Assembly: GCA_052327205.1 (NCBI GenBank)
Contig: CM126217.1
Coordinates: 71,300,001 to 71,364,000 of the forward strand
Length of the DNA stretch: 64,000 bases
Source of the DNA: Somniosus microcephalus
Taxonomy: Eukaryota
Direction of reading: 5' to 3'
Below the pieces are notes generated by a model. It saw only the letters and a list, made by a program, of their open reading frames with translations, was not told the DNA's origin and did no database searches. The stretch's first letter is position 1, and each line of letters opens with the position of its first letter. This document shows, one piece after another, positions 5,466-61,032 of this stretch. The position numbers and the translations under genes were made by a program.

Positions 5466-5808
5466 CTCCCCCCTGTGATACTAAAACTTGCTTGAAGTAT
5501 CATACTTTTAAGGTGAGCAAAATTTTTCTGACCCTCCATAGTCAACCTTCCCCTGTAATTACCTATCTAATATACCCATGACACATGCACTTCCCATTCC
5601 GCGAAAATGTAGTGTACATCAGCATACAGAGAGTAAAATTACAGACTTTTACACACACATCCAAGCATGGAGGGGTCCAACACCACTGCACCACTTGGTA
5701 CACATATCTTTATTAAACCGCGTTGCAAAAAAAACCAAAAGAAAAACCTTTATTAAAAATAACAAACACAAAGAAATGATCCTTTAATCAAAATACAGGG
5801 AAAAAGAC

Positions 5809-11377: not shown

Positions 11378-13152
11378 TCACAGCTGTGGGTTGGATGGGG
11401 CTGACGGAGTGATAGCACCAGTGGCGGCTGCTACTCTCCCCTGGCCAGTCAGTAAGGACCTCATGGCGTCCAAAAGTGACTCGACCTCTGCGGAAGGGGT
11501 CCCTGCCCCCGCCTTTTGGGCTGGGGCTGTGGGATGCTTTCCCTTGTTATCCTTCCAAGGGTGTTTGCACTCCTTCCGCCAGTGACCATCCTTTCCACAC
11601 CCGTAACAATTGGTCTTTGTGCTGGGGGGGTTACTCCCTTCCTGGTGCCACTCTTTCCTACCCGGTCCGGGTTTTATCTCATGCACCTTCCCCTTGGGTG
11701 GGTGTGCATCAGCTCCCCTACCATTTTTGTAAGCCAGAGTGAGCTGCCTAATTACCGTGATCTCTGTGGTCTGGGGATCTTTGGGGTTGAACCAGGCTTC
11801 TGCCTTGGCCCGGACCTGTGGCAGGCTGTTCGCCACCAGGCAATGGAGCCAATGGGCCAGGAGGTCCCTGTTCAGGAACACTCGGTCCGGCGTCCCCGGG
11901 CAGGCCCTCCGGTACACCGGCCACAGCCGGTCCGCAAAAGCCTTCGGGGTTTCCTCAGAAAGCTGGATCGTCTTCTCCAACTGGGAGAAGGGACTTCCCT
12001 CATCCATCCCCATGGCCTCCAGAACCGCATCTCTAAGGTCCTCGTACTCGCTCTGCCCCCTTTTACACTCGTCAGAGAGGGATTGGAGGAGATTACTCTC
12101 CAGGGAGAATAGCAGCATCTTGGCCTTCTCAGCGTCATCGCAGTCGTTGACGCTGGCGGTCTGCTCTATTTCCCTGAAGTGGATCGAGGGGTCTCCTTTT
12201 GCGGAAAGCTTCGGGATATGGTTGACCATAACCCTGAGCTGCTAGGTGTTAAAGGGTAACACGAACTGGTTTTGGAGGGGTCCCTCATTGTCACCATTGG
12301 CGGGTGGGCCGAACCTCTGATGCCGCGCTGGGCACATCGGTCTCGGCTCCGACCTCTCGGGCAGGGTTTGCTCTACCTCCGCCTCCACCTCTGGCTCCAC
12401 TTTGGGTTCCACCCCCGGTTCCACCCCGCCTTGCTGCCAAACCTCGCTGAAACTTGGCGCTACGGGTGGTGGCCGTGAGGTCTCCTCTCTCTCAACCGGG
12501 TTGTCCCTAAGCACTACCGGTGACGTTGGAACTGTCCTCCCCTTGTTCCCCATTAAATCTGCCTGACCTGCCTTTGGGCTTATGAGGCATACCATGCCTT
12601 TTGCCTTCCGGAGGGCCCGGCTCAGATTTTCTATCCTCTCTCTACAGGGGCCGTGATCTGCCTTCTCAAACCCCTGTTCACTTGTGAGCTTGTAAGCGGC
12701 TTTTACCTCCTGCACTTTCTCTTCCTGTTCCCTAATCTGCCTTGCCAAGCGGGCGTTTTTCTCCCGCAACCTTAACTCGTTTTCCTTGGCCTCGGTGACT
12801 TGGCACCGTAGGTATTCCAACTGGGCCTTGTGTTCTCCCACTAAATGCACTCTTTCCTGGTTTAAAGCCTGCAAAGATACTAATAAGTTCTCCCCTGCAA
12901 GAGCCTTATCCTGGATCTCCAGGGCTGACTCCCTTAACTCGACTGCCTATGCTGCAACGAGCCTGTCCAAAAGCTGGACCTGCTTTTTAAAGCACATCAG
13001 CCAAACTGCCTTCTCTAAGGACTTCATGTGTTCCTTTCCCTCTGTCCACTTAGCTGCTGCATCTACCGATGCCCAGCCTTTAACAGAGTGGTGATCCACT
13101 TCTTAGTGATATTCACCTTGCTAAACACATAATCAGAAATCCTTTCCTCCAT
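11378..13152 (-). pseudogene. gag: gag with N-terminal coiled coil, capsid-like region and one CCHC knuckle
   Basis: ATG at 13152; one frameshift and two stops; heptad-rich 12242-12874; CYGCGKDGHWRKEC; ends TGA at 11378-11380. Confidence 0.88.
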
Positions 13153-13205
13153 CAAGGTTTGCTCATCTGAACCATTGTCTACTGTATCGCAACCCTGTTG
13201 CCGGG

Positions 13206-13223
13206 GTCCTGCCGCGGTCGCCA
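13206..13223 (-). promoter_or_regulatory. Primer binding site, tRNA-Arg(TCG)
   Basis: The + strand GTCCTGCCGCGGTCGCCA matches the 3' 18 nt of vertebrate tRNA-Arg-TCG as I recall it; it lies 3 nt from the 5' LTR. Confidence 0.85.
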
Positions 13224-13226
13224 TTA

Positions 13227-15457
13227 TGTAGGGGGTGGCGCGTGGGCCCTGTCAGTTATGCCTCTGACTGCCCGTGAGCAGTTCGAATCGCTCCCACGCC
13301 CCTGAGATTCTCGACACCGGACTTAGGTACAGGTAGTGATATAGAAAAGACTCGAGTAGACTGGTGGTTTGGATGTAAGCAAAACTCAAGATTTTATTAA
13401 ACAGAAAAATTAACACAGTCTTATGAGAAGCTACCAGTATATAAAATTACAGGCAAATACAAATAACTATACTTATACAGGGAATGGGGAATACATGGCA
13501 CATCGAGGGAAAACAACTATCTTAACAATCCCCTTATCCTTATCCCACCCCCTATACCTAACTAGATTAAGCTATGAGGGGCCAGAATTTATGCTCACCA
13601 ATCAAAAGGGTTTGTTGGACTCAAAACAGCGGTGGGGTTCGGGGTTCGCTGTTGGTGCTCTCTGGAGCCTGCCGTCGTCACGTGGTCTCCGGGTGCTGCA
13701 AGGGCGTTGTCCAGGTTCGAGTACTTTACCTTGCAGGGATGATTCCTCTTCTTCGGCCGACAGTTTGAGTTTGCATGAAGATAGTCGCAGGTTGGCTGAG
13801 GCTGAAGGCCTGATGATTCAAAGCCTACCCTCAGTTGGTCTCCTCAGTTGGTCTTCCTCAGTTGGTCTTCCTCAGTTGGTCTGCCCTCCTCCCCTCGTCG
13901 CGTCTCGCCTCGCCTGGCCTGAATTGTCCATGTCTGCCCGATGCAGTGCCAGGGTGATTTCCAGATGGAGTGGCAAAAGGCACGAGCAAAGGCCAGGGGG
14001 TAAGCGCGGGACAGGGAAAGAACGACAGCCATGAGAGCGAGGGGCAGAAGAGCCGAGCAGAGCAGAGAGCGAGATTGCTACCCGGGGCCTTCAATTATAC
14101 TCTTTTCGAAAACCCTTATCTGTGCGCCAAATCAGGTTAGTTCTTTGTCTTAATCTTGGCGGGCTATTTTAAATAATGGTAGCAATCTATACTAACTGTT
14201 TTTAGATGGCCGGTAATCGCATCTACCGGCCCGATAACTGACTTGTTTTGTTATGAATGTTCCTTGATGGGCCTGTCCAGCCTAGATGGCTTTCTTAATC
14301 TGTTGCCGATTATATATGTAAACTGTTTGATGGCCTTAACTATAGACCTAACTGGATTTAGATTTGTCTCCAATTCAATCTAATACATAATTCAAAGTCC
14401 TGTCTGGTTTCAGAATACAAAGGGCTAGATTTTCCTGGACCCGTCAGGCGGGGTTTCAGTCGTGTGGGGGGGGAAATCCCGAATTTGGGGGGCCCGACAC
14501 CATCCCGCCCAAAACCCCGCCCCACGTAAGTTTTAGGGGCAGCAGGTACCCGCCCCGCACTGGGACCCGCTGAAACCAGGCGGGAAGGGATTAGTGCCAA
14601 TTAACTGCCCAACAGGCAGCTTTTAGCCTAATCCCTATTTTGAGGGGTTTCATGTGGGTTTCCCGACGGCTCCAAACCATGCCAGGTTAGAGCAGGCGGG
14701 CCGTCGGGTTGAAGGAGTTGGAGGGGTCGCGATGTCGGCGCTCAGGTGAGTGATGAGTGCATGAGTGTAAAGGTAAGTGTGTTTGGTGTGTCTAAAGTGT
14801 GTAAAGAACTTTTACTTACCTGTACTTACCTTAACAGCCTTTCTTCCTGGAGCTGTCGGGAGCCCATCACTCAGCTGGCACTTAAAGCTGAATGGCTGCG
14901 ATCTGTGAAAAGTGACAGCCTTCAGCTTTGAGTGCCGGTAAGAGTTCTAACTGAGTCTGTGCAGAAGGACTCATGTCAGAACTCAGACTGTCAGTGTTTC
15001 ACAGCTTCAAACAGCTGTCAAACACTGATATTTCATCTGTCAAGAACTCTTGACAGATGAAATTGCAGTCTGTGACGTCACCTGTTGCCGGGTGGCCCTT
15101 AATTGGCCTGCTGAGCCCGCTGGACGGGCTCAACAAGGTCAATCAAGGGAAAATCGCGTGGATTGGCCGGACGTCGATGTAGGCGGGTCAAAAACCCGAA
15201 AGGGGAAGTCCCGCCTTCTTCCCGACAGGTTTGGGAAAATCTACCTCAAAGTCTCTCTTCACAGAAACTGCAGCTTTGGTTTCGATTTCTCCACAAGCTG
15301 CCTGCGTTGCAGAGTCCAAGTTTTAAAATCTCACAGGCTTTCTGCCACGAGGCACGGACGCCATCTTGGGTACCCTTTTTGATTTAAAATGTCCACGCAG
15401 GGTCCCGTTTATTAATAACAACCTTCGGGGAAATGTAGAAATGTTGCAAATCTTACA
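13227..15457 (-). repeat. 5' LTR of provirus, interrupted by a MITE
   Basis: Colinear with 4048-5465 apart from substitutions, a ~28-bp indel, 4 vs 3 copies of ctcagttggtct(t)c and the MITE. Confidence 0.95.
14422..15247. mobile_element. Harbinger-type MITE inserted in the 5' LTR
   Basis: 14-bp imperfect TIR gggctagattttcc / ggaaaatctacctc; 3-bp TSD AAA; the empty site is visible in the 3' LTR (tacaaagtctc). Confidence 0.9.
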
Positions 15458-40989: not shown

Positions 40990-41135
40990 ACGGTTCTTGG
41001 AAGCATGAAGCAGTTGAACAGTTCCAGTAAGTTTGCAGGTGAGACACATCACAGGCCCAAAAGGCGGATTTTTTTCAAAAGTGAAACCGGAGGCACATAG
41101 AACACCAACAGAACGGACTACATGGAAAGTTTTGA
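40990..41135 (+). promoter_or_regulatory. Candidate cytokine promoter motifs upstream of the IL-26-like ATG
   Basis: GAS TTCTTGGAA 40994-41002; GAS-like TTCCAGTAA 41022-41030; IRF-E AAAAGTGAAACC 41077-41088; GGAAAG at ~41124. Confidence 0.45.
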
Positions 41136-41454
41136 TTGTATCACCTCACAAAAAAAAGTCTGTGAACAAGGTATTTTAGAGACAGAAACACAGACAAGTT
41201 GTTAAACGGTGCACATGACTGGACTTGAGTCTGAAAGCAGAAAAGAGCAGCATTGGTATGATGCAAGTTCGAGCTTCGGGTTTCTTCACTGCGCTGCTCT
41301 TGCTCAACGTTTGCTTTTCTTACTGTGCAAAGAAAGATTCAAATAGACAAAAAACATGCTTCAAAAACACATCAGTCTCCACACTCAAACAGCTGAGCAG
41401 CATGGTTCGCACTGTGACAGCGTCAGTTCCAGTGAGTGGCTTCTTGCACATTTT

Positions 41455-41700
41455 GACTTTCTGTTGCCTAGGCCCTAAACTCTGGAACTCCCTCCCTAAA
41501 CCTCTCCGCCTCTCTTTCCTCCTTTAAGACGCTCCTTAAAACCTACCTCTTTGACCAAGCTTTTGGTCACCTGCCCTAATTTCTCCTCATGTGGCTCGGT
41601 GTCTTTTTTGTCTTATAATACTCCTGTGCAGCGCCTTGGGACGTTTTATTATGTTAACAACAACAACTTGTATTTATATAGCGCCTTTAACGTTTTATTT
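41455..41700 (+). mobile_element. L2 LINE 3' end with a short inverted tail
   Basis: ctctggaactccctccctaaacc...ctttgaccaagcttttggtca; same family as 62700-63430. Confidence 0.75.
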
Positions 41701-41871
41701 TATTTTTATATAGAGCTTTCCAATGTGTGCCCTCCCCTCTCCCTATAGCCCTGCAAAGAAAGGTGTTGACATCCCTTTGCGAGAATGGAATACAGTCAAA
41801 CCGACTTTTTAACAAAGGAAAATAGATCAGGTTAAGAGCTTTGAATGTTGACGTTCAAAGTTGTTCTCTTT

Positions 41872-42070
41872 AGAAACATATAGAATCATAGAAGATAGGA
41901 GCAGGAGTAGGCCATTCGGCCCCTCGAGCCTGTTCCGCCATTTAATAAGATCATGGCTGATCATCCAAATTCAGTACCCTGTCCCTGCTTTCTCCCCATA
42001 TCCCTTGATCCCTTTAGCCTTAAGAAATATATCTAACACCTTCTTGAATATATTTGATGAATTGGCCTCA
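41872..42070 (-). mobile_element. CR1 3' end
   Basis: Reverse complement of the family at 48020-48203. Confidence 0.9.
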
Positions 42071-42149
42071 TTTATGTAAAGATCAATTTATAAAAAGGCT
42101 TTCTTACATGCATTCTGATCTAAATTCTTTATGAAAACCGCCAATGTTA

Positions 42150-45100
42150 CGTTACAAACAGTTCCCATGGATTGGCGGGTAGCTAATGTTACCCCATTAT
42201 TCAAAAAAGGTGGTAGAGAGAAAACGGGGCATTATAGACCGGTAAGCCTGACATCGGTAGTGGGGAAAATGCTAGAGTGTAGGAATGCCTAGTCCCTATC
42301 CAAAAGACTGAGGTCCACTCAGGCGATCAAATCAACGAGGTTTAATAAAAAGTAACAGAGTTTAACAGCTAACTACAGGAGAACATCGAATATAGGTCTA
42401 GTCAGTTCGGAGGCTCCACGAGGACTGCTAGGGCGGTCCCATGGCTGACGTCATGACGTCATCACGTTTTTCCCGCCGGTGGGGGATCACGTGATGAACG
42501 GCGTGACGTCATCGCGTTTGCCCGCGCTATTAAAGTGATCGCGCTCTGTACATGTAAACAGTGAAAATAAGATACAGACTCAGGCTGCAGCCAACATATT
42601 ATTAAAGGGAATTATATACAATTGATTGGAGCCCCTTAGTGGCTCCACCACATGTGCCCCCCCAGAATTGTCCTTAATAGCAAAAGTAAAATGGCGAGAA
42701 GGCCTGACAAGCCTGTCAGATCGACTTCTGTAGCCTTGAAGTGGAAGCTGATGGATGGCGGGCGAGCTGGCGGGCAGTTGCTTTTGATCTGGCACAGCGA
42801 CTGTGGGCGGTCGGCCACGTTTCGGCAGTTGTGCGATCTCGACTGGGCGGTCAAGGTCCAAGTGAGCAAGCTTCAACCGGTCAACCGAAATGTGGTCCGG
42901 TTTACTTCCAACATCGACTGAAAAAGATTTGTCTCCCGGCTCTATCACACGGAAAGGACCAGTGTAAGGGGGTTTGAGCGGGTCCCGATGAGCGTCGCGG
43001 CGGATAAACACATAGTCGGCGTTCTTCAGCTCAGCTGGGACGTGGGAGCTTTGCAAGCCGTGATGCGACGTAGGCACTGGAGTGAAACTTCTGGCTGCCT
43101 CCTGGTGGCTGATGAGCTACTGGGACGCGGACCATGGCTTTGTTGGAGATGGAAGGAAATCCCCTGGTACGCGTAGCGGCTGGCCATACACGTGCTCCGC
43201 CGAGGACGATTGAAGATCTTCTTTAGGTGCCATACGAAGACCCAAAAGGACCCATGGAAGCCTGTCCACCCAGCCCGCGCCTTGAAGGCTGGCTCGCAGT
43301 GCGGCTTTGAGCGACCTGTGGAATTGTTCGCACAGGCCGTTCACCTGTGGATGGTAGGCAGTGGTGCGATGTAGCTTGACGCCGAGCCCCTGAGCCACAG
43401 CGTTCCAGAGCTCCGAAGAGAACTGCGGCCCACGATCGGACGAGATGTCTGCCGGTACCCCGAAGCGGGCGACCCAAGAGGAGATGAATGCCCTGGCGAT
43501 GTCTGCGGGAGTGGTGGAAGACAGAGGAACCGCCTCCGGCCATCGAGTGGTGCGGTCCACCATTGTAAGAAGATGAGTAAACCCGTGCGAAGGCGGAAGT
43601 GGCCCCACCAGGTCCACATGCACATGATCAAACCGACGTTCCGGAACGGCAAAACTGGCCAATGGAGCCTTAACATGACGCTGTACCTTGGCCTTTTGGC
43701 AGACCACGCAGGTGTTGGCCCAGTCGCGAACATCCATGTGCATGCCCTGCCACACGAATTTGGACGACATCAACCATTGCGAGGCCTTCATGCCAGGGTG
43801 CGACAACCCGTGTATGGCGTCAAAAACTTTTCAGCGCCAGGCGACCGGGATGATAGGGCGAGGATCTCCTACGGAGACGTCGCAGAGTAGCGTAGTGCCC
43901 GCGGCATGGAATTTGACGTCAGCCGCTTGGAGGCTAGAGGGGTTGGTTCTGTAAGATTGGACCTCCGGATCCGAGGCTTGACCCGCAGCCATGAGGGCAT
44001 AGTCGATGCCGAGCTGGACTGCATGAACGGTTGCGCGGGAGAGGCAATCCGACACCAGGTTGTCCTTACCGGACACATGCTGAATGTCAGTGGTGAATTC
44101 TGAGATAAACGTCAGCTGACGTTGTTGCCGAGCTGACCACGGTTCGGCGGTCTTGGCCATAGTGAACGTTAGTGGCTTATGGTCCACAAAAGCCGTGAAC
44201 GGACGTCCTTCTAGCAAGAACCGGAAATGGCGGATGGCCAGAAAAAGGCCCAGCAACTCCCGGTCAAACGTGCTGTACTTTCGTTCGTTTCGCCGCAGTT
44301 GACGGCTGAAAAACGCCAGCGGTTGCCACGTCCCATGCACCCACTGTTCCTGCACTGCGCCGATGGCGTAGTCTGACGTGTCGGTGGTAAGGGCAATGGT
44401 GGCACCTGGCAGCGGGTGTGCCAGCATGGTTGCATTGGCTAAAGCGCCTTTTGTGTCGACGAACGCCCGGTCCATTTCGACCGTCCAGCTGATCGGATCC
44501 TTGCCGGACTTGCCCTTGAGGGCCTCGTACAGGGGCTGCATGAGCCGAGCTGCATTAGGGACGAACTGGTGATAAAAATTTACCATCCCGAGGAACTCCT
44601 GCAGGGCTTTGACGGACTGCGGGCGCGGGAACGAAGTAACTGCCTCCACCTTCATTTGCAGGGGAATTGTGCCGTCTGATGTGATGCGATGGCCTAAAAA
44701 ATCAATCTGCTGCAGGCCGAACTGGCACTTGGCCGGGTTGATGAGGGTGCGCAAATGGCAGATGTGCTCTTTATTAGGGCTGGCGATGAGGATGTCGTCG
44801 AGGTAGACGAATAGAAACTTGAGGTCGCGAAGTACGGAGTCCATCAAGCGCTGGAAAGCCTGTGCAGCATTCTTCAATCCAAACGGCATCCGCAGAAATT
44901 CAAACAAGCCGAATGGGGTGATGACTGCAGTTTTCAGGACATCTTGCGGGTGTACGGGGACCTGGTGGTAGCCACGGACAAGGTCGACTTTTGAAAAAAT
45001 GGTATTTCCCGCCAAATGTGCAGAGAAATCCTGAATATGAGGGATCGGGTACCGATCAGGAGTAGTGGCATTGTTCAGGCGTTAGTAGTCGCCGCAAGGC

Positions 45101-48100
45101 CGCCATCCGCCGCCGGGTTTCGGAACAATGTGGAGAGGCGAAGACCAGGGACTATTCAACCGGCGAATAATCCCTAGCCGCTCCATCGTGTCGAACTCCG
45201 CTTTCGCAGGCGCGAGCTTGCCAGGTTCGAGGTGCCGGGCCCCTGCGTAGACCGGGGAGCCAGTAGTGGTGATGTGATGTTCGACACCATGTTTCGTGGC
45301 CGTGGAAGAGAAAGTGGGTCTGGTCAGGTCTGGGAACTCTCCGAGGAGGCGAGTGAAGTCATCCGGAGGTGGGGACATGCAGGAGACAGTGCGCGCCACG
45401 GTGTTACCGCGGTCGCACGGGATGGAGTGAAAAGTGGCCGCATTGATCAACCGGCGGTGCCGTACATCCACCAGGAGGCTGTTGGTGCACAAAAAATCCG
45501 CCCGAGGATGGCTTGAGAGACTTTGGCCGTGATGAAATCCCAGTAAAACCGCTGGCCGCCGAAGCACACCTGGACCCGCCGGCTTCTGAAGGTTCGAATG
45601 GCCCCGCCATTAGCCGCCTGGAGGGAGGGGCCGTGCCCCCCAACTTGTAGATCAAGATTGGACGCGGGTAGGATGCTACACTGCGCCCCGGTGTCGCAAA
45701 GGAAACGTCGACCAGATAGGGAATCGTTGATGAAGAGGAGTTTTCCCGAATTACCGATTGCCATCGCAGCCGCGGGGCGCTCGTTATAACCGGTCCTCCT
45801 TCGACAGGGTGGCTGCTGGGTTTTTTTGAGCGAAAAGCTGCAGGGAGTGCGGCAGCATCTTGCTTTCGCGCCAAAACGGGCATGGTAGATGCACAACCCC
45901 GCAGGTTGAGGGACTGGAGCAGCGTCTGTGGGGGATGGGCGCCTCGTGGCAGCGCAGCACTGCTGTGTCACCGCGAAGATCTTGTCTGCATCGGCAGCCA
46001 GCTCTGCGCAGTCGGTGACTTCCGACCTGGCTAGGGCAGCTTGAACTTGCTCCGGAAGCTGGCTGAGGAATAGCTCCCTGAAGAGGAAGCATTCCGGTTT
46101 GGAGCCCAGGAGCGTGAGCATTTGGCTCATGAGCTCGGATGGCTTGGAGTCCCCGAGGCCGGGCAGATTGAGCAGCCGGCGGGCGCACGCCGACTTCATG
46201 AGCCCGAAGACCTGTAACAACCGCGCCTTTATCGTATCATACTTGCGGTCCTCTGGTGGATTACCAAGCAGGCTGACGATCTGCGAGGCTGTGGCGCTGT
46301 CGAGGGCGGAGACCACGTGATAATAACGGGTCTGATCCGCAACGATGTTCCTGATGGCGAACTGGGCTTCAGCCTGGATGAACCACGCGGCTGGCTGTTG
46401 CTCCCAGAACTGTGGTAGCTTTAAAGCAAAGGCGTTCGATTCCATGTTCGGTAACTTTTGCGCAAACCGTTCGCAAAAGTCGGGGTCACCAATGTAGGAA
46501 TGTCTAGTTCCTATCCAATAGGTCCACTCAGGCAATCAAATCAACGAGGTTTAATGAAAAGTAACAGAGTTTAACAGATAACTACAGGAGAACATCGAAT
46601 ATAGGTCTAGTCAGTTCGGAGGCTCCACGAGGACTGCTAGGGCGGTCCCATGGCTGACGTCATGACGTCATCACATTTTTCCCACCGGTGGGGGATCACG
46701 TGATGAACGGCGTGACGTCATCGCGTTTGCCCGCGCTATTAAAGTGATCGCGCTCTGTACATGTAAACAGTGAAAACAAAGGTACAGACTCAGGCTGCAG
46801 CCAACATATTATTAAAGGGAATTATATACAATTGATTGGAGTCCCTTAGTGGCTCCGCCACAAGAGTCCATTATAAAAGATGTAATAGCAGAGCACTTGG
46901 AAAACAGTGACAGGATCGGACAAAGTCAACATGGATTTACAAAAGGTAAATCATGCTTGACTAATCTACTGGAATTTTTTGAGGATGTAACTGGTAGAAT
47001 AGATAAGGGAGAACCAGTGGATGTGGTGTATTTGGACTTTCAAAAGGCCCCGCATAAGAGATTAGCGTGTAAAGTTCAGGCACATGGGATTGGGGGCAAG
47101 ATACTGACTTGGATAGAGAACTGGTTGGCAGACAGGAAGCAAAGAGTTGGAATAAACGGGTCTTTTTCCGAGTGGCAGGCAGTGACTAGTGGGGTACCGC
47201 AAGGATCGGTCCTAGGACCCCAGCTATTCACAATATATATTAATGATCTAGATGAGGGAACTAGATGTAATATCTCCAAGTTTGCAGATGACACAAAGCT
47301 GGGTGGGCGTGTATGCTGTGAGGAGGATGCCGAGAAACTCCAGTATGATTTGGACAGGTTGGTGATTGGGCAGATGCATGGCAGATGCAGTATAATGTGG
47401 ATAAATGCGAGGTTATCCACTTTGGTGGCAAAAACAGGAAGGCAGATTATTATCTGAACGGCAATAGATTGGGAGAAGGGGAAGTGCAACGAGACCTGGG
47501 TGTTTTTGTGCACCAGTCGCTGAAGGTAAGCATGCAGGTGCAGCAGGTGGTTAAGAAGGCAAATGGTATGTTGGCCTTCGTAGCGAGAGGGTTCGAGTAC
47601 AGGAACAAGGATTTCTTGCTGCAGTTGTACAGGGCCTTGGTGAGACCACACCTTGAGTATTGTGTGCAGTTTTGGTCACCTTATCTGAGGAAGGATGTTC
47701 TTGCCATGGAGGGAGTGCAGCGAAGATTCACCAGACTGATACCTGGGATGGCAGGAATGACGTTTCAGGAGAGATTGGATCAATTGGGCTTATACTCGCT
47801 GGAGTTTAGAAGAATGAGAGGGGATCTCATTGAAACTTATAAAATTCTAACAGGACTAGACAAACTAGATGCAGGAAGGATGTTCCTGATGGCTGGGGAG
47901 TCCAGAATCAGGGGTCACAGTCTAAGGATAAGGGGTAAGCCATTTAGGACAGAGATGAGGAGGAATTTCTTCACCCAGAGAGTGGTGAACCTGTGGAATT
48001 CTCTACCACAGAAGGCAGTTGAGGCCAATTCATTAAATATATTCAAGAAGGAGTTAGATATATTTCTTAAGGCTAAAGGGATATGGGGAGAAAGCAGGGA

Positions 48101-48203
48101 CAGGGTACTGAGTTTGGATGATCAGCCATGATCTAATTGAATGGCGGAGTAGACTCGAGGGGCCGAATGGCCTACTCCTGCTCCTATCTTCTATGTTTCT
48201 ATG
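42150..48203 (+). mobile_element. CR1 LINE split by a Gypsy insertion (42150-42277, 46867-48203)
   Basis: The reading frame GKMLE|SIIKD continues across the AGAG TSD; ORFs 46849-47457 and 47385-48131. Confidence 0.93.
42278..46862 (-). mobile_element. Full-length Ty3/Gypsy LTR retrotransposon, CsRn1-clade-like
   Basis: LTRs 42278-42652 and 46493-46862; TSD AGAG; PBS TGGTGACCCCGAC (tRNA-Trp, 46479-46491); gag from ATG 46445 with LPQFW and CIYHARFGAKARCCRTPC (CHCC); DTGA, YLDD, RNase H, IN with GPF; several stops and frameshifts. Confidence 0.93.
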
Positions 48204-49021
48204 ATCCCCCCCACCTCGGAACCCTACATAAGCTGCATTATAAACCTGGTGCTGCATTCTACCTGAAGAATGTTTCCCCAAAGTCCACAGAACCTAAGTC
48301 TTAGGGCTCACAACAGCGTCAGTTCTCTTGCCCCTCTCCACACCCACCTGAAAATAATGTGCAAGTAACTGAACAGCAAATAAACCGCAGCACCAGGCAG
48401 ATTCCGGGTCACTCCCGGACTGATATCGATCACAATCTACAGATTACTCGACAGCTTTTTTTATATATATATCGAGAACCAGCTCTTATCGCATACAGGA
48501 AGTGATAGGGATCACACATCGGAAAGAGTATTGTTTGTGTACTACCGGGTCTGCGTGGAATACAAGCCTTTCATGTGTGTAAGATAAAGTACAATAAGAT
48601 CAAATCAGATTGGTGAAAGGAGAGAGAACCTGGGCATTGGTATGAACCCGTTACAACACGCCTGCGCCTTTAAAACTGGCTGTTGTTCTATCAGCGGTGA
48701 CTTTGCGAGGGCTCCACCACAGAGTGAAAGTTAACACTGCAGCATCTTTCCCCGGTGAAAGGCCGATATATATTTTAAAATATATGATAAAAGCTGGTTC
48801 CAAGTGTGTAGGTAGTAGTAGCAACTGGTGATCTGGTTCTCAGTTGCGTAAACTCATTTAAATTGATAGCTAACTTATTCGAAAACTGTGCAAGAGGCCC
48901 AGAGGCTGGCTTGCATTGTAAAACACGACGGTCATTACGGAATTACCGATGGAGTTAACTGTGAAGCAATATCGATCACATCATTAAAGGTGTGATTTAC
49001 ATCTGAAACAGTGTTACTTAC

Positions 49022-52000
49022 TGTAATGTCCGTGTGTAATTGAGACACGGACTGCAGAAGTTGGTTATAACAGGTGTTTACTGAATGGAGACAAAACTGG
49101 AACTATTATACAAAGTTACTACACAGGCTTATATACAGGGGTGGTCACTACTGGTACTGCAGTATACAGGGGCTGCAGAATATAGTTCCTTCTTCAAGGT
49201 ACATACACTACAATTCCACCCCTTTTAGCTAAACAGTACATAACATTCGATTAATAATTAAATAACATATTTACAATTACAGTTGCTATATACATTAGCT
49301 GAAGTTAATCAATTATAAATTCAGTCTTTGAGGAGGCTTCCTGATTCTGTCCGGATAACGCCTGTTTCGGGTATCAGGTTCTTCTGGCAAAGTTGATTCG
49401 GGATCAACGTCATTGTTTGGTTCGTCTGCTTCCAATATCACCGATTTCTGAGGTAGATGCAATTGGTACTTCGGTTTCATCACCAGGTGTATAGGATCGT
49501 GGTGTAGATTTGACGTTTTCCAGTGACTCTAGAATCTGGTCAGCATGGCGTCTTACAATGCTCTCTCCAACGTCCATGGTATACATTAGAGGTCCTTGCC
49601 GTGTGCAGATCGTTCCTGGCTGCCATTTCTCTGTGCAGTAGTCCCAGGCCAAAACTGGTTGACCTATCTTGAAACTCCTGGTTGGCCTTTCATTCATATT
49701 CTGAAACTGCCTGTTCTCCACATCTCTTCTGATGTTTGGCTTAACCAAATCCAAGCGGCATCTTAGTCTTCGATTGAAGAACATCATGGCTGGAGTTTGG
49801 TTGGTAACCGCATGTGTCGCTTTCCGGTAGGCAAACAAGAAGTTATCCACCTTGTGTTGTAGGGGTATGTCTTAATTACACATTGCCTTGATAGCCTTCT
49901 TGAATGTTTGAACGAACCTCTCAGCCAATCCATTGATGGGTGGATGATATGGGGCGGATGTGTAATGCTTAACCCAATTGTTCTTTAAGAACCTCCGGAA
50001 CTCTTCAGACACAAACTGTGGTCCATTGTCGGAGCAAATCTGTTCAGGCAGCCCATTTCTGGCAAATATGGTTCGTAAGACTGTGATAGTTTTTTCTGTG
50101 GTAGTTGAGGACATTTTTATTACCTCTGGCCACTTTGAATGTGCATCCACCGCAATTAAAAACATCGAGTCCATAAATGGACCAGCAAAATCAATGTGCA
50201 CCCTTTGCCATGGAGATGAGGGCCACTCCCATGGATGTAGAGGGGCTTGTGGTGGGGCGTTTTGGACCTTCTGGCATCCTGTACAGCTCTTGGTCATCTC
50301 TTCGATTTCTCTATCGATTCCCGGCCACCACACAAACGCTCTGGCTAAGTTTTTCATTTTTACCCCTCCCAGATGACCCTCATGAAGCTCATTGAGCACT
50401 CTATCCTTCAATTTGGGTGGAATTACTACTCTGGATCCACACATCACGGTACCTCGGCACACTGACAGCTGTTCTCTTCTCGGCGAGAATGCTGGCAACA
50501 GTGGTTCACCATGTGCTGGCCATCCCTTCACCGTTAAATCATAGACCCTGGAGAGTGCCGGGTCATTTCGTGTTTCCTTTTCTATGTTTGCATTCGTCAC
50601 AGGTAAACATTCGACTATGGTCGAGTGGAATATCTCCACAGGATCCACTGCAGGTGCTTCTTCCACCGTCGGCAACGGTAGGCGCGACAATCCATCAGCA
50701 TTCCCATGCTGTTTAGTTCCTTTGTACTCGATGTCATATTGGTGTGCCCCTAGGAAAAGGGACCACCTCTGTAGCCGTTGTGCTGTCATTATCGGGACGC
50801 CCTTCTTAGGGTTGAAAATGGAGACAAGAGGTTGATGATCAGTTAGTAGAGTAAATTTCTGTCCGTGCAGGTAGTGATTGAACTTCTTCACCCCCCACAC
50901 CAGGCTGAGGGCCTCTCTGTCAATCTGGGCATAGTTACGCTCGGCTGCAGTTAACGAGCGTGACGCAAAAGCTATCGGCCTCTCTGAACCATCAAGGGAT
51001 TTATGTGACAGTACCGCTCCAGCGCCGTAGGGAGACGCATCACACACCAGTCTTATCGGCAGTGATGGGTTGTAGTGAGCCAATACTTCTCTTGAAGTGA
51101 TCAGGCCTTTACACTTCTGAAAGGCCCGCTTACATTCATCGCTCCATTTCCATGCTACTCCAGTTTGTAGCAGGGTGTTCAGTGGGTGCAGAATTGTGGA
51201 AAAATTCAGCAAAAACTTATGGTAGTAATTCACCAATCCGAGGAATGACCTCAGTTGCGACACATTTTCAGGCGCTGGAGCCTTAACTACCGCTTTAATT
51301 TTGTCAGGGGACTTATGTAACCCCTCTTCATCAATCACGTGGCCACAATACGATATTTGTTTCTTTAAAAACTCGCACTTGGGGCGATTGGCTCGTAGCC
51401 CATGTTCTCTTAGTCTAGTGAGCACCTGCTCTAGGTTGGCAAGGTGTTCACTGTCATTTTCACCTGTCACTAGGATGTCGTCCAAGTAACACTGAGTCCC
51501 CGGAATCCCTAGCAGGACTTGTTCCATCGCTCTTTGCCATATAGCCGGAGCTGATGCTACTCCGAATACCAGTCGATTATACTGGTAAAGACCTTTGTGA
51601 GTGTTTATCGTGAGATATTTCCTAGAGGATTCTTCAACCTCCATCTGCAAATATGCTTGCGCTAGGTCAATTTTTGTAAAACGTTTCCCTCCAGATAGTG
51701 AGGCGAAAATATCTTCTATCCTCGGAAGAGGATACTATACTGTGTGAAGGACTGGGTTCACAGTCACCTTGAAGTCCCCACAGATGCGAACCTTCCTTGG
51801 CTCCTCAGACTTATTGTTTAACGTTTTCTTCATGACAGGAACGATGGGTGTCGCCCACTTGCTCCAGTCTACCTTAGATAACACGCCTGCATTCTCCAGA
51901 TTCTCCAGCTCTGCCTCGACGGCTGGGCGAATTGCATACGGTACCGGTCTTGCTTTGAAAAACTTGGGAATTGCATCCTCTTCTATTTTTATCGAGGCGG

Positions 52001-54200
52001 TTACGCCTTTAAGAGTTCCCAGTCCTTGTTGAAATACCTCTTTGGCGTTAGCTAAGATTTTTGACAATCATCCAGGTGTGACGTCGTCATCCTTTTTACC
52101 AGCCACAGTCAGTGCCTGAATGGAGTGCCAGTCTAAACTTATCTTTCTGATCCATTCACGTCCCAATAATGGTGGTCCACCATCTTGCAGTATGTACAGA
52201 TACAATTTCTGTATTTCCTTGCTGTTGTATTTGACAGGCACCCTTATTTTCCCTCTGGGGTATACTTTCTGCCCCGTATATATCTTCAAGACAATGGATG
52301 TGTCTTTCAAGGGTATGTGTGAGAATAGCCGCTCGTAGTCTCGTCGATTCATGACGGTCAGGGCTGATCCTGTATCCAATTCCATTTTGACTTGGGACCC
52401 TGCTATCGTGAGGGTGACCCAAATGGTTCGGTGATCCTCTTTTGCGATTACGTTGTGTAGTTTGAGACAGCTTAGTCTCTTGTTCCCGGATTCACTATCG
52501 CTCTTCTGGTCTTCGGAACTACTGTCCGTCATCTTTTGTACTTTCCTGTACTTTTCCTTAGTAGCCTTTTTGTTGTCGTTAGTCTTCTTCCCGGACCTGC
52601 AAACTCGTGCAATGTGTCCCATTTTTCCGCATTGCCTGCATGTTTTGTCCTTGGACCAGCAGTCCTTCTGGTCATGGGTTGTTCTGCCGCAGCGATAACA
52701 TTTTTCAAATCCCCGTGTCATTTCATGGGTGCCGTATTCCTGTGGCTTTTGCTGTATTTCTGCAGCTCCCCTTGCTGCTGCTTCGTACGATACTGTCATG
52801 CTGAAAGCCTTATCTAGCGTCAGCTCTTTCTCTGAGAGTAACCTCTTCTGGGTTCCTTCACTCAGGAGTCCACAGACAAATTTGTCCCGTAGGGTATCTA
52901 CCAGTCCTGCTCCGAACTGGCAGTGCTTTGATAGCTTGCGTAGTTCCGTAAGGTAATCAGCATTGCTCTCATCTTTATGCTGATTTCTCTTGTGGAATTT
53001 AAATCTTTCTGCTATCAGCAGCGGTGTAGGATTTAGGTGTTCCTGTAGGATATCAACAATTTCGTTAAAACTCTTCTCCATCGGTTTGACTGGAGTGATC
53101 AAATTCCGCAATAGACCGTACGTTCTTGCGCCCATTAAGTTTAGTAGTACCGATGCCTTTTTCTCATCGGCTACTTCATTTGCCTTGCAATATACTTCGA
53201 CTCTTTCCACATACGTGGTCCAGTCTTCTATTGCATTATCGAAGGCAGTGATATTGCCAGTCTTCGGCATCTTGGAGATCTAAGATGGCGCCTCCCGCGC
53301 TTTGCCTTCTTCCCCGATTGAACAAAATGGCGCCTCCCGCGCTTTGCCTTCTTCCCCGCTGGATTAAGATGGCGCCTCCCGCGCTTTCTGCCTTTTCCGC
53401 TGCTGCCAGCGCTGTTGGTGGCGTTTTTATGCCTTGATGGCAACGCCCTATGGTCTTCGCGCGCTTCCCCCCGCGCTGCTGCCAACGCCGCTCTCCACGG
53501 TTCCCGTGGCAAACTGCAGCTCCTCGCGGCTTTCTGTGCTTCTAATTTCTTTTTCTTTTATTACTGTTCCCGTCGTCAGAGCAGACCCTGTGGGACACTT
53601 CCCTCCCTCTTCTCGGGTCTGTTCGCTGCCCGGTTTCGTAGCACCGGCCGCGCCCTGTGTGCTCCACCCTCTCTCTCTCCTCTTCCCGACAACGCTGCTC
53701 GGCCCCGTTGAAAAGCCACCCGATCGAGCTCTAGCCCGCCGCAGCCCAGGAAGGATCAGTGTACTACCTGCCACCAGCCCGATTAGCTGGAACACCATAG
53801 ACTGGAGAACCAAGCCCAGCTCTCGACAGCCTCTCCTGCAAACCTTCGAATTCGATGAATCAGAGGGCGGTTGCCCACGGTCGACGCCCGTTTCTTCTGT
53901 TTGTTTGTTTTTTCTTTTTGGATTTCTTCCTTCTGGCTTCGACCTCTAATAACTTCGCTTCAGGGATGGCTCCCCGTGAGGTGGTGCAGAACTGTAGGTA
54001 AGTTCGGATCTGTTCGTCGCCAATGTAATGTCCGTGTGTAATTGAGACACGGACTGCAGAAGTTGGTTATAACAGGTGTTTACTGAATGGAGACAAAACT
54101 GGAACTACTATACAAAGTTACTACACAGGCTTATATACAGGGTACTGCAGTATACAGGGGCTGCAGAATATAGTTCCTTCTTCAAGGTACATACACTACA
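49022..54200 (-). mobile_element. Full-length Ty3/Gypsy LTR retrotransposon, Mag-clade-like
   Basis: LTRs 49022-49212 and 54024-54200; 5-bp TSD CTTAC; PBS TGGCGACGA; gag from 53270 with two CCHC knuckles; DTGS, YLDD, DAS RNase H, IN; a few stops and a frameshift. Confidence 0.93.
53281..53398. repeat. Three ~42-bp tandem repeats in the Gypsy 5' leader
   Basis: aa(g/a)atggcgcctcccgcgcttt unit x3. Confidence 0.85.
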
Positions 54201-54234
54201 CTTACGGTCCCAGGTAGCCTGTACTGGTCTTTAT

Positions 54235-55112
54235 AAGAACATAAGAATTAGGAGCAGGAGCAGGCCATACGGCCCCTCGAGCTTGCTTCGCCAGTCAATG
54301 ATCTTCGACCTCAACTTCACTTTCCCGCCAAAACCCCATATTGCTAGATTCCCCTAGAGTCCAAAATCTATCTATCTCAGCCTTTAATGCACTCAACACA
54401 GCCTTTTGGATTAAGTTAAAGAATTCCAAAGATTTATAACCCTCTGAGTGAAGAAATTCTTCCTCATCGCAGTCTTAAATGGCTGACCCCTTATCCTGAG
54501 ACTATGCCCCCTAGTTCTAGACTCTCCAACCAGGGGAAACAACCTCCCAGCGTTCCCCTCAGAATCTTATATATTTCAATGAGATCACCGCTCATTCTTC
54601 TAAACTCCAGAGAGTATAGGCCCAATCTACTCAATCTCTCCTCATAGGACAACCCTCTCATCCCAGGAATCAATCTAGTGAACCTTCATTGCACCGCCTC
54701 CGAGGCAAGTATATCCTTCCTCAGATAAGGAGACCAAAACTGTGCACCGTACTCCAGGTGTGGTCTCACCAAGGCCCTGTACAATTGTAGCAAGACTTCC
54801 TTACTCTTATACTCCAACCCCCTTGCAATAAAGGCCAACATGCCATTTGCCTTCCTAATTGCTTGCTGTACCTGAAAGCTAACTCTCTGTTTCCTGTACG
54901 AGGACACCTAAATCTCTCTGAACACCAACATTTAATAGTTTCTCACCATTTAAAAATTACTCTGTTTTTCTATTCTTCCTGCCAAAGTGAATAACCTCAC
55001 ATTTCCCCACATTATACTCCATCTGCCACCTTATTGCCCACTCATTTAACCTGTCTATATCCTTTTTCAGGCTCTTTGTCTCCTACTCACAGCTTACTTT
55101 CCCACCTAGCTT
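54235..55112 (-). mobile_element. CR1 LINE 3' part
   Basis: [15 protein letters not shown]; CR1 tail. Confidence 0.9.
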
Positions 55113-55114
55113 TC

Positions 55115-55552
55115 TGCTCAGTGGGTAGCACTCTCGTCAGAAGGTCGTGGGTTCAAAGTCCCACTCCAGAGACTTGAGCACAAAAAACTAGGCTGACACT
55201 CCAGTGCAGTGCTGAGGGAGTGCTGCACTGTCGGAGGTGCCGTCTTTCAGATGAAATGTTAAACTGAGGCTCTGTCTGTCCCCTTTGGTGGACATGAAAG
55301 ATCCCATGGCACTATTTCGAAGAATTATCCCATGTCCTGGCCAATATTTATCCCTCAACCAACATCACTGGTCACTGATGATCTGGTAATGATCACATTG
55401 CTGTTTGTGGGAACTTGCTGTGTGCAATTTGGCTGCCACGTTTCCTACATTACAACAGTGACTACACTTTAAAAAAAAGTACTTCAATGGCTGTATAGTA
55501 CTTTGGGACGTCCGGTGGTCGTGAAAGGTGCTATATAAATGCAAGTCTTTCT
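55115..55552 (+). mobile_element. tRNA-derived Deu-domain SINE (SacSINE1-like) with L2-like tail
   Basis: A/B-box-like gctcagtgggtag / ggttcaaagtcc; gaggtgccgtctttcagatga and aaagatcccatggcact core; tail gctatataaatgcaagt. Confidence 0.75.
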
Positions 55553-55756
55553 TTTTATCTTCAGCAATATGCATTGATATGTAATCATGCCCTTTTATTA
55601 ATATTTATTTTAGTTAGTTACATCATTACAAATAAACAGGCAGCTTTAACTTTATGGAAAAAAGAAAATACTGCAGATGCTGGAAATCTGAAATAAAAAC
55701 AGAAAATGCTGGAGATACTCAGCAGGTCAGGCAGCATCTGTGAAGAGAGAAACAGA

Positions 55757-55791
55757 GTTAACGTTTCAGGTCGATAACCTTTCGTCAGAAC
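55757..55791 (-). ncRNA. Minimal type I hammerhead ribozyme (Penelope-associated)
   Basis: gtt-CTGACGA-aaggttatcgacct-GAAACGTT-aac. Confidence 0.7.
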
Positions 55792-57516
55792 TGGAAAAAA
55801 GCAGGAAATGGAACAGATTTTTAAGCAAGTGTAGGAGCTGGGAAAGGGGGGAGGGGATAAAGAACAAAAGGGAAGGTCTGTGATAGGATAGAAGGCAGGA
55901 GAGGTTAAGAGACATTAAGAGATATTCAACGCAAAAGGAGATGGTAATGGGACAGGTTAAGAAACAAAGGATGGCTCTAGATGAAGTGTAAATTGCGCTG
56001 GCAGAATGAAAGACAGCTGCCATGTGAGAGAGAAGAAAAGAAAACACAAACAAAAAAATAGGGTGGAAAAAAATATATATTGTAGGGGCCGAGGTTATGA
56101 TCTGAAATTGTTGAACTCTATGTTGAGTCCAGAAGGCTGTAAAGTGCCTAGTCGAAAGATGAGGTGCTGTTCCTCGAGCTTACGTTGAGCTTCAGTGGAA
56201 CAATGCAAGAGGCCGAGGACGGTGAGGTCTGAGTGGGAATGGAGCGGTGAATTAGTGACAGGCAACCGGAAGCTCGGGGTCCCCCTTACGGACTGAACAG
56301 AATAGGTTATTGACAAACATTCACTACAAGCCCACTGACTCCCACAGCTACCTGGACTACACTTCCTCCCACCCGCCTCCTGTAAGGACTCTATTCCATT
56401 CTCCCAGTTTCTCCGTCTCCGCTGCATCTGCTCTGACGATGCCACCTTCCATACCAGCGCTTCCGACATGTCTTCCTTTTTCCTCAACCAAGGATTCCCC
56501 TCTACTGTGGTTGACATGGCCCTTGACCCTGTCCGTTATATCTCCCGCACTTCTGCCCTCACCCCTGCCCCTCCCTCCCGGAGCCACGATAGGGTTCCCC
56601 TTGTCCTCACCTTTCACTCCACCAGCCTCCACATTCAACAGATCATCCTGCGCCATTTCTGCCACCTCTAGCGTGATCCCACCACCAAACACATCTTCCC
56701 CTCACCTCCCCTTTCAGCATTCCGAAGGGACCGCTCCCTCTGCGACACCCTGGTCCACTCCTCTATCACCCCCGACACCCCTTCCCCTTCGCCCGGCACC
56801 TTCCCGTGCAAGTGCAGGAGATGCAACACATACCCTTTTACCTCCCCCCTTCCCACTGCCCAGGGCCCCAAACACCCCTTCCAGGTGAAACAGCGATTTA
56901 CTTGTACTTCTTGCAATTTAGTATACTGTATTCGCTGCTCACGATGCGGTCTCCTCTACATTTGGGAGACCAAATGCAGATTGGGTGACCGCTTTGCGGA
57001 ACACCTCCATTCAGTCCATAAGGGGGACCCGAGCTCCCGGTGGCCTGTCACTAATTCACCGCTTCACTCCCACTCTGACCTCACCGTCCTCGGCCTCTTG
57101 CATTGTTCCACTGAAGCTCAGCGTAAGCGCGAGGAACAGCACCTCATCTTTCGATTAGGCACTTTACAGCCTTCTGGACTCAACATAGAGTTCAACAATT
57201 TCAGATCATAACCTCGGCCCCTATCATATATATATTTTTTTCCACCCTTTTTTTTGTTTGTGTTTTTTTTTCTTCTCTTCAACATGGCAGCTGTCTTTCA
57301 TTCTGCCAGCGCAATTTACACTTCATCTAGAGCCATCTTTTGTTTCTTAACCTGTCCCATTACCATCTCCTTTTGCGTTGAATACCTCTTAATGTCTCTT
57401 AACCTCTACTGCCTTCTATCCTATCACAGACCTTCCCTTTTGTTCTTTCATCCCCTCCCCCCTTCCCCAGCTCCTACACTTGCTTAAAAATCTGTTCCAG
57501 TTCCTGCATTTTTCCA

Positions 57517-57551
57517 GTTCTGACGAAAGGTCATCGACCTGAAACGTTAAC
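57517..57551 (+). ncRNA. Minimal type I hammerhead ribozyme (Penelope-associated)
   Basis: gtt-CTGACGA-a-aggtc-atc-gacct-GAAACGTT-aac: intact core, 5-bp stem II, palindromic stem III. Confidence 0.75.
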
Positions 57552-58404
57552 TTTGTTTCTCTCGTCACAGATGCTGCCTGACCTGCTGAGTATCTCCAGC
57601 ATTTTCTGTTTTTATTTTTAACTTTTATGAAATGTCACCGAGAGTATATTTTTTAAATTTTAGACTCAGTCACATCCATGTAAAACACTGGGGTTTACAA
57701 AGCAATCGGGGAACTTGAAATCCTCATTGACTGGATACACATGTATGCACAGTGAACAGGAAGGGGATGAACAGTGCGCCCCAGCGAAATAAATCCATTG
57801 GACAAAAGGCCACACATCTGAATTAGATGGCATTTCTTCCAATTGTTGCAATGGTCATTGTTTCATTGGAATAATTATTTAACCAAGACACAAATTGCCG
57901 CTGCTCAGCTCTCTGAACTGTTCTCTTTTCCCAAAGTATTATGAGCTAACAGTGTGTGCACAACGTGTTTATTTAAAATCATTTACGCAGAACCTATTTG
58001 ATTTATTTTTCCACATAAATGATCTTAATTGTAATAATATGTTCTTAAACGTAAACTTGCCAGAAATGTATGAATAAATACATACAACAGCATCCATTGC
58101 TATATAGCTAAAAATAAGCAACAGTGCTCAATTTGTTTATTGTTTTAAATACGAGAAAATAACCTAAACCCAATACACTAAGGGTGTAATACCGTAATGT
58201 AGAATATATCCATTTTTACTAAGGCATTAATCAAAAGATCTGCAACTCCTTGTAAGAAAAATGAAACATAAATAAAGGGGGCAATTATACTGTCACTGTT
58301 GTATTAAAGCAATGCCAAGTTGACAGTAAAAATCAAGAGTCAGGTCCTGATCTGACTTTGGAATACAGAGGTGTGAGATTCTCTTGGGAAGACCACCTTA
58401 TACT

Positions 58405-61032
58405 TTTCTTCTTAGGCAGTCCCTCGGAACCGAGGATGACTTGCTTCCACACTAAAAATGAGTTTGCAGGTGACTGATGAGTCCAATGCGGGACCTACAG
58501 TCTCTGTCACAGGTGGGGCAGACGGTGGTTGAAGGGGCGGGTGGGTGGGGTGCTTGGGTTGACGTGCGCTCATTCCGCTGCTTGCGCTTGGCTTCCGCTT
58601 GCTCCCGGCGAAGAGACTCGAGGTGTTCGGTGCCTTCCCGGATGCTTCTCCTCCACTTTGTGCGGTCTTGGGCCAGGGATTCCCAGGTGTCGGTGGGGAT
58701 GTTGCACTTTTTCACGGAGGCTTTGAGGGTGTCCTTGAAGCATTTCCTCTGCCCACCTGGGGCTCTCTTGCCGTGTCGGAGCTCCGAGTAGAGCACTTCT
58801 TTTGGGAGTCTCGTATCGGGCATGCGACCGATGTGGCCCGTCCATCGGAGCTGATCAAGCATGGTCAAAGCTTCGATACTGGGGATGTTGGCCTGAGTGA
58901 GAACACTGACGTTGGTGCGCCTATCCTGCCAATGAATTTGCAGGATCTTGCGGCGGCATCGTTGGTGGTACCTCTCCAATGCTTTGAGGTGCCTGCTGCA
59001 AATGGTCCATGTCTCTGAAACATACAGGAGGGCGGGTATCACTACTGCTCTGTAGACCATGAGCTTGGTGCTGGGTTTGACGTCCTGGTCTTCAAACACT
59101 CTCTTCCTCAGGCGACCGAAGTCTGCACTGGCACACTGAAGGCGGTGTTGGACTTCGTCATCGATGTCTGCCCTTGTTGACAGTAGGCTCCCGAGGTATG
59201 GAAAGTGGTCCACGTTGTCCAAGGCCTTGTCACTGATTTTGATAATTGGGGAGCAGTACTGTGTGGTGGGGGCAGGTTGGTAGAGGACTTTTGTCTTACA
59301 GATGTTTAGTGTAAGGCCCATATTCTCGTACGCTTTGGTGAAGGTGTTGATGATGGTTTGGAGTTCGACCTCAGAGTGTGCGCAGACGCAAGCGTTGTTT
59401 GTATACTGTAATTCGATGACAGAGGATGGGACGACCTTGGATCTGGACTGGAGACGACGGATGTTGAACAGTTTCCCGTTTGTTCTGTAGATTAGCTCCA
59501 CTCCAGCGGGGAGCTTACTGACGGTGAGATGGAGCATTGCAGCCAGGAAGATCGAGAAGAGCGTTGGTGCGATGACACAGCCTTGCTTGACCCCGGTCCA
59601 TACATGAATTGGGTCTGTGGTGGATCCGTTGGTCAGGATCACGGCTTGCATGTCGTCGTGAAGCAGGCGGAGGATGGTGACAAACTTTTGAGGGCAGCCA
59701 AATTTGAGGAGGACACTCCATAATCCCTCACGGTTGACCGTGTTGAAGGCCTTTGTGAGGTCAAAGAAGGCCATGTACAGCAGTTGGTGCTGTTCCCTGC
59801 ATTTCTCTTGTAGTTGACGCGTGGTGAAGATCATGTCCATTGTGCCCCTTAGTGGGCGGAATCCACATTGCGACTCTGGGAGGAGCTCTTCAGCCACTGG
59901 GAGAAGGCGATTAAGGAGGATTCTTGCGATGACTTTCCCTGTGGCAGACAGCAGGGAGACTCCTCTGTAATTACCGCAATCAGGCTTGTCACCTTTCTTG
60001 AAGATGGTCACGATTACGGCGTCTCTGAGATACCCTGGCATGCTCTCCTCTTTCCAAATAAGAGAAATGAGCTCATGTATCCGCGCCAATAGTGCTTCTC
60101 CGCCATGTTTTAGCGCCTCGGCAGGGATTCCATCTGCTCCTGAGACCTTGTTGTTCTTCAATTGTTGGATGGCCTTTTCAACCACATGCCAGGTTGGGGT
60201 TGCGTTGAGATGGTGGTGGGTAGCATGCTGCGGGATGGAGTTGAGGACACTTGCATCGAAGGCAGAGTCTCAGTTAAGGAGATCTTCGAAGTGCTCCTTC
60301 CAGCGGGCACTGACTGCCTCTCTGTCCTTGATGAGTACCTCATCATTCTTGGCCCACAGTGGGGTCGGTGTCATAACCAACACCTTGTTCCATCAGAGAG
60401 ACAAGTACAAGGCTTCATGGCAACACCCCCGCTCCAAGCACTGGCATCTGCTGGACTACGTCATCGACCAAGCGAGAGACTGCAAGGACGTCTGCATCAC
60501 CCACGCCATGGAGCTGACGACTGCTGAACAGACCACCGCCTAATCCGCTCTGTCATCTCCATCAATGTAGCCCCAAAACAGCGGCGGAAACAGAAGCAAT
60601 GCCGCAGGAAAATTAACGCTGGAGCACTCAAAGACCCTGCTAAGAAAGCCCTATTCAGCCTGCACCTCACAACCAACCTGACGACTTCCAGTGATTCAGA
60701 GACCCACAGCGCCTGGTCTGCACTCAAGGCCTCCATAATCAGCACCTGTGAAGAGACGCTTGGTCACTCAACCAAGAAACACCAAGACTGAACGACCAGG
60801 AGATCCAGGAGCTAATAAGCCGCAAGTGCAAGGCATTCCTGATCTGGAAACAGCAACTGAACTCGACAGCAAGAAAGCAGCTCTACAGACGCCGGAAGGC
60901 CGAGGTCCAACAAAAAACTCGCGACCTAAAGAACAGATGGTGGGTGGAGAAAGCGCAGGAGATCCAGCAGCTAGCCGACAACCACGACGTGCGTGGATTC
61001 TTTAGCACAGTCAAGACCACCTACAGCCCAAG
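58405..61032 (-). mobile_element. RTE-clade LINE with inverted 5' segment (~60369-61032 on +)
   Basis: 577-aa RT ORF 58452-60185 (QCGFR, GVKQGCVIAP, YADD decayed to YTNN, C-terminal CPTC..H); the upstream SWQHPRSKHWHLLDY segment is on the opposite strand; TSD caccttatact at 58394-58404 and 61033-61043. Confidence 0.92.

Follow-up and report, generated by a model that had tools for sequence, protein, structure and literature searches.

A decayed IL-10-family gene between IL22 and IFNG in a shark, probably the orthologue of IL26

We found a decayed gene of the IL-10 family on the forward strand of shark contig CM126217.1 (C16), between IL22 and IFNG. It occupies positions 41258-57755 of the window, which is the whole 64,000-nucleotide stretch that was analysed (71,300,001-71,364,000 of the contig, in a 6.4-Gb genome) and within which feature positions are counted; its exons 1, 3 and 5 are statistically detectable and exon 2 was recognized by eye. 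The locus is almost certainly a single-copy dead gene, that is, a pseudogene, and we consider this pseudogene probably to be the orthologue of IL26. The original prediction had proposed the IL-26 name because the last exon combines GVYKA with a Trp. The name is probably right by synteny, but the reason given for it is wrong, since IL-10 of the same shark genome, reading GVYKAMGELNIFIDWL, also has GVYKA and the Trp; position, not motif, therefore carries the name.

The tetrapod order is IL22-IL26-IFNG beside MDM1 (PMC5033493), and the neighbours predicted from it are in place. MDM1 lies at 71.249-71.263 Mb (+) of the contig, IL22 at 71.2973-71.2999 Mb (+) with five open exons that end just before the window, the dead gene at 71.341-71.358 Mb (+), and IFNG at 71,418,372-71,419,309 (+) with four open exons, two of which give weak Pfam IFN-gamma matches (E 0.06 and 0.17). 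The dead gene thus lies between these two cytokine genes, shares their strand and has MDM1 adjoining. A genome-wide Pfam search for IFN-gamma found nothing, a false negative given the IFNG gene on this contig. A CAND-type gene is on the same contig at 72.39 Mb (-); no DYRK2 motif was found within 71.26-71.724 Mb. The span 71,249,341-71,419,309 thus joins MDM1, IL22 and IFNG in this shark, a linkage left open for sharks by PMC5033493; in the elephant shark IL22 adjoins IFNG, according to the available part of PMC5332411.

The gene does not sit in the IL10 cluster, a placement that would have spoken for IL-10 or IL-20L. That cluster is on another contig (C18), where IL10 is intact at 26.604-26.610 Mb and stands head to head with an intact five-exon IL-20-like gene (IL-20L; L072, 26,701,701-26,705,686, +), so that the places of both are already taken. 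A degenerate second copy of the IL-20L last exon lies near 26,706,150 of C18. Both IL-10 and IL-22 of this genome have matches among named shark proteins. Since IL10, IL20L and IL22 are all present, the dead gene fills the IL26 slot with none of those three missing. IL-19/20/24 are traced only to gar in the accessible part of PMC12652433.

Table 1. Remnants of the dead gene and repeats in its introns (positions in the window)
Feature	Positions	Strand	Remarks
Exon 1, intact	41258-41431	+	58 codons, ATG 41258, hydrophobic leader, phase-0 GTGAGT donor
SINE-like high-copy short repeat, intron 1	41456-41693		very high depth; masked
Probable exon 2 remnant, 50 nt	41781-41830	+	by eye; in-frame TAG 41823-41825, no canonical acceptor
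LINE (CR1-type) 3' fragment	41874-42070	-	inverted match to 48020-48202
LINE (CR1-type), tail abutting exon 3	42157-48203	+	RT match; loose contig ends at 42157
LTR retrotransposon, Gypsy-type layout, nested in LINE	42280-46860	-	LTRs differ at 12/366 aligned bases
Exon 3 remnant	48216-48362	+	profile score; two small frame breaks, no acceptor
Second LTR retrotransposon	49022-54200	-	LTRs differ at 1/175 aligned bases
LINE (CR1-type) fragment	54232-55130	-	inverted matches to 47526-48202; right end approximate
Penelope-like element, inverted ends	55691-57617		label by eye
Exon 5 remnant, helix-F signature	57678-57755	+	TAA 57681-57683, no in-phase acceptor, stop TGA 57753-57755
AU-rich 3' tail	57756-58078	+	four ATTTA and AATAAA

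The exon remnants (Table 1) were scored with a frameshift-aware profile for each exon, built from nine shark paralogue sequences, against 300 length-matched unique null windows; the test took in eight target windows, picked by eye, and two profiles. Exon 1 (27.6 bits), exon 3 (23.5 bits) and exon 5 (45.3 bits) each scored above all 300 nulls, although in an 818-nt window the margin for exon 3 is just 23.5 against a null maximum of 23.2. Exon 5, whose translation from 57690 is GVYKAIGELEILIDWI, bears the helix-F signature that marks the IL-10 family. Its Pfam IL10 match is weak (E 0.021, below the curated cut-off), and frameshift alignments to single paralogues gave support for exon 5 only. Exon 2 had no statistical support in the profile test (p 0.35-0.5). 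Exon 4, which the original prediction could not place with confidence either, was not found in three candidate windows of the same test (p 0.03-0.48). Candidate readings are a remnant near 48490-48590 and a deletion that joined the start of exon 4 to exon 5 after the strong AG at 57663; a tblastn row hints at a third, with exon 4 in frame immediately before exon 5. Of a layout with five phase-0 exons, the parts observed are the phase-0 donor of exon 1, the supported exons 1, 3 and 5 and the by-eye exon 2.

Exon 1 ends in TVTASVP at its donor after 58 open codons, just as predicted, and its mature part is basic (net +6). The prediction of pseudogenisation also held, on the strength of the exon-5 TAA, the lack of an in-phase acceptor and the exon-3 frame breaks. 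Both AGs upstream of the last exon (exon starts 57664 and 57670) are out of phase. In exon 3 the frame breaks flank an FY-like core, the continuous frame has a stop, there is no phase-0 GT donor, and a LINE tail occupies the expected acceptor site. The AU-rich 3' sequence expected past exon 5 was found, with ATTTA at 57877, 57971, 57981 and 58001 and AATAAA at 58073, counted without a chance control. Upstream of exon 1, positions 41060-41180 hold AAAGTGAAAC and a weak TATA-like TATTTTA, likewise without a chance control; AAAGTGAAAC resembles what we take to be the consensus of an interferon-factor site. A GTGAAA motif resembling that upstream of exon 1 also precedes IL22.

DNA searches found exons 1, 3 and 5 each in single copy in the genome. 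Genome searches for the family found IL10 and IL22 only and give lower bounds; within those bounds no working copy was seen, which, together with real exon-5 lesions, makes this a unitary pseudogene.

Exons 1 and 5 are separated by 16,246 bases, 91% of them repeats. Exons 1, 3 and 5 follow one another in order along one strand, and the interval from exon 1 to exon 5 yielded no second leader exon, in keeping with the prediction that these two belong to one gene. The intron content foreseen from the sequence was recovered as two LTR elements (both with reverse transcriptase, RNase H and integrase), LINE pieces and a Penelope-like element, with two of the labels qualified: CR1 is our presumed label for the LINE pieces, and the Penelope-like element, named by eye, had no Pfam match. 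Elsewhere in the window, an LTR element at about 4100-13900 (-) carries reverse transcriptase, an RNase-H-like tether, a second RNase H (PF00075) and then integrase, which is a retrovirus-like double RNase H layout, and directly past the 3' tail of the dead gene a non-LTR element has a 605-codon open reverse-transcriptase frame (58452-60269, -). An open frame of 678 codons in a provirus-like element (L022:5431-7464, -) matches retroviral envelope (PF00429, E 8e-11).

The last exon of the dead gene matches Heptranchias IL-10 at 15/19 residues and, by eye in the available part of the alignment in the PMC6640115 supplement, IL-26 of human at 12/23, of chicken at 13/23 and of Xenopus at 9/23. Over exons 1, 2, 3 and 5 the identities to paralogues are 40/135 (IL10), 34/140 (IL20L), 33/131 (IL22) and 28/132 (the gene beyond IFNG, described below), the same level as between intact shark paralogues. 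A recent copy of IL10 was considered and ruled out. First, exon 5 is identical to IL-10 at 13 of 25 residues, with differences at 8/12 shared degenerate codons and 5/5 four-fold sites. Second, the maximum likelihood distance from the dead gene to four shark IL-10s is 1.9-2.2, as against 0.11-0.22 among those IL-10s. Third, in a ten-row tree the IL-10 clade leaves the dead gene out at 98/88. The deeper nodes of this tree, which covers shark paralogues only, have support of 80 or less. The kept protein together with saturated silent sites suggests that the gene was long under selection in its own right before it died.

Orthology to bony-vertebrate IL-26 is argued from position and from a few residues compared by eye. 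In the accessible, trimmed alignment QKTC precedes the first helix in the dead gene as in Xenopus IL-26; the dead gene has Pro followed by E-x-x-I-x-x-x-R-L as does human IL-26; and the third position of exon 5 is Asn in the dead gene and in human and Xenopus IL-26 alike. The Pro site in the human protein is, we assume, the junction of exons 1 and 2. The last residue of exon 1 is F, I, E and K in shark IL10, IL20L, IL22 and IL-26L, respectively, and the E-x-x-I-x-x-x-R-L pattern also occurs in exon 2 of IL-20L, two residues in. We read the QKTC and the Pro-Glu junction as leaning towards IL-26, few as these residues are.

The cluster contains a further cytokine gene. About 35 kb past IFNG, at 71,453,481-71,466,511 (+; L019-L021), lies an intact five-exon gene of 176 codons whose product is basic (net about +12) and lacks the family's helix-F signature. 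By eye it matches the printed elephant-shark IL-26L at 12/20, 13/20 and 10/11 residues in exons 1, 3 and 5. That protein was named 'IL-26L' by Yamaguchi et al. in 2015 'despite the minimal similarity' (PMC4690019). The gene beyond IFNG would be its orthologue and a separate lineage. The dead gene shows no match to the printed IL-26L, its summed score is -8 against the IL-26L counterpart and 107 against IL10, and the gene beyond IFNG is its least similar shark paralogue. From the location of that counterpart beyond IFNG and this low similarity, it follows that the dead gene differs from the published IL-26L. The original prediction held IL-26 to be poorly documented in cartilaginous fish; an IL-26-like claim was in fact already known, and what is new is that it concerned a gene other than the present one. 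This would make the true IL-26 of sharks a separate gene that had been overlooked, and the gene beyond IFNG, if the dead gene is IL26, is an orphan lineage.

A possible objection is that the dead gene is instead a paralogue specific to cartilaginous fish, an ancient copy of IL10 or IL20 or a local duplicate that came to lie in the IL26 slot, with IL-26L, or nothing, as the IL-26 orthologue. We consider this unlikely, but it is the most serious alternative: the best sequence match is indeed to IL-10, a Ser-Cys pair ahead of the FY core is reminiscent of the Cys-Cys in IL-20L, and the cluster has one cytokine more than the human cluster. Yet it requires a move from another chromosome to the exact position and strand of IL26, the dead gene is as distant from IL-10 as IL-20L is, with saturated four-fold sites, and IL-26L neither carries the family signature nor stands on the side of IFNG where an IL-26 orthologue is expected.

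Under the IL26 interpretation, the ancestral gene would have consisted of five exons, all phase 0, with a secreted helical cytokine as its product, which may have signalled as IL-26 does through IL-20R1 and IL-10R2 (the receptor pair given in the available part of PMC12652433). It would have been under selection for long as a lineage of its own, been inactivated before the split from organism D, and later have accumulated the LTR insertions. Somewhat at odds with this interpretation is the lesion-free exon 1 beside several lesions in the other exons, an outcome that by a rough estimate is somewhat unlikely under pure neutral decay. The mechanism of decay is ordinary gene decay.

The exon-5 lesions recur in other samples. 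In three of four runs a single contig of the short-read assembly covers 57620-58400 (X1, possibly the source sample; X2, organism B; X7, organism D), and all three have the TAA and no in-phase AG. The differences over this interval number 0 in X1, 1 in X2 and 30 substitutions/776 bases in X7 (about 4% divergence). In organism D the signature Glu is changed to Gly at 57712, along with one silent change; these are 2 changes in 69 coding bases, compared with 28 in the remaining 707 bases. The exon-5 stop and the missing acceptor are real and found alike in a species about 4% divergent. Exon 1 is identical in X1. In both X1 and X2 the contigs break off over 41820-41865 and do not bridge exon 2, an interruption to which we attach no meaning.

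It might also be supposed that the gene is partly alive, with exon 1 transcribed, its DNA regulating the IL22-IFNG cluster, or a short peptide made by other splicing. Exon 1 does retain its ATG, frame and donor, and mammals with broken IL26 still produce IL26 transcripts, as stated in the accessible part of PMC3894449. Against this, the sole coding difference in exon 1 of organism B (X2), at 41367, is non-synonymous, and neither the AG at 57664 nor that at 57670 opens an in-frame path to helix F; we regard such residual function as improbable. Two organism B RNA runs (24% and 31% read, tissue unknown) yielded no reads on exon 1, a result to which we give no weight because they have no inducible-cytokine control.

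The idea that errors of assembly account for the lesions and the gene is intact, or that exons 1 and 5 come from different genes, is very improbable and largely refuted by the exon-5 contigs: the exons are 16 kb apart and read support covers the lesions of exon 5 rather than those of exons 2 and 3, but the exon-5 lesions recur in three short-read assemblies, two of them from other organisms, the neighbouring IL22, IFNG and IL-26L counterpart are open, and the collinear exons are separated mostly by repeat.

An Atlas search for an intact orthologue gave no usable match. A search with exon 1 for longer proteins matched 0 of 15 candidates; HMMER, run in full against 1.84 billion representatives, gave two matches, both unrelated tandem-repeat proteins; an exon-5 alignment search had 46 candidates, of which six matched, each of them a shark IL-10 or IL-22; and a search with the IL-10 tail region returned 1/1, the query itself, which marks the word filter as insensitive. 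These protein searches do not show that an intact orthologue is absent. In the PDB, IL-10, 19, 20, 22 and 24 are present and IL-26 is not among the 21 matches; the exon-1, HMMER, exon-5 and IL-10-tail searches likewise returned no IL-26 sequence. In a search mostly of non-subscription literature, with weak coverage of database annotations, we found no mention of a gene or pseudogene lying between IL22 and IFNG in any shark. The parts of PMC8863823 and PMC6640115 available to us do not name a shark IL-26. Reviews, in their accessible parts, follow IL-26 back to teleosts or reptiles at the deepest: PMC4929537 notes teleost IL-26 and PMC12652433 traces IL-26 to a turtle.

Bearing the signature and sitting exactly in the IL26 slot, the dead gene makes a better candidate for IL-26 than does the published IL-26L. 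If it is IL26, it would take the complete IL-10/20/22/26 set back to the gnathostome ancestor, and it implies a shark cluster with one cytokine more than the human one. The intact orphan cytokine beyond IFNG would need a name and receptor of its own, and the exon coordinates given here can be used to look for a functional copy in further sharks and rays.

Among known systems, bony-vertebrate IL-26 (human, chicken, Xenopus, teleost) is like the shark gene in its slot and strand between IL22 and IFNG beside MDM1, its phase-0 leader exon, its helix-F signature and its basic mature exon 1; the shark gene differs in being broken in exons 2, 3 and 5, and its orthology is argued from position and a few residues. 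Elephant shark IL-26L shares the IFNG locus, the proposed name and an IL-10-type exon layout, but its counterpart here is intact and lacks the helix-F signature. Shark IL-10 (P0003-P0005, on C18) is closest in sequence, above all in exon 5, and differs by contig, by an identity of only ~30% and by saturated silent sites. The mammalian IL26 pseudogenes, independent losses according to work cited in the available part of PMC3894449, are alike in being single-copy losses of the gene in the IL26 slot with the neighbours kept; the shark loss is independent of them and parallels these repeated losses in mammals.
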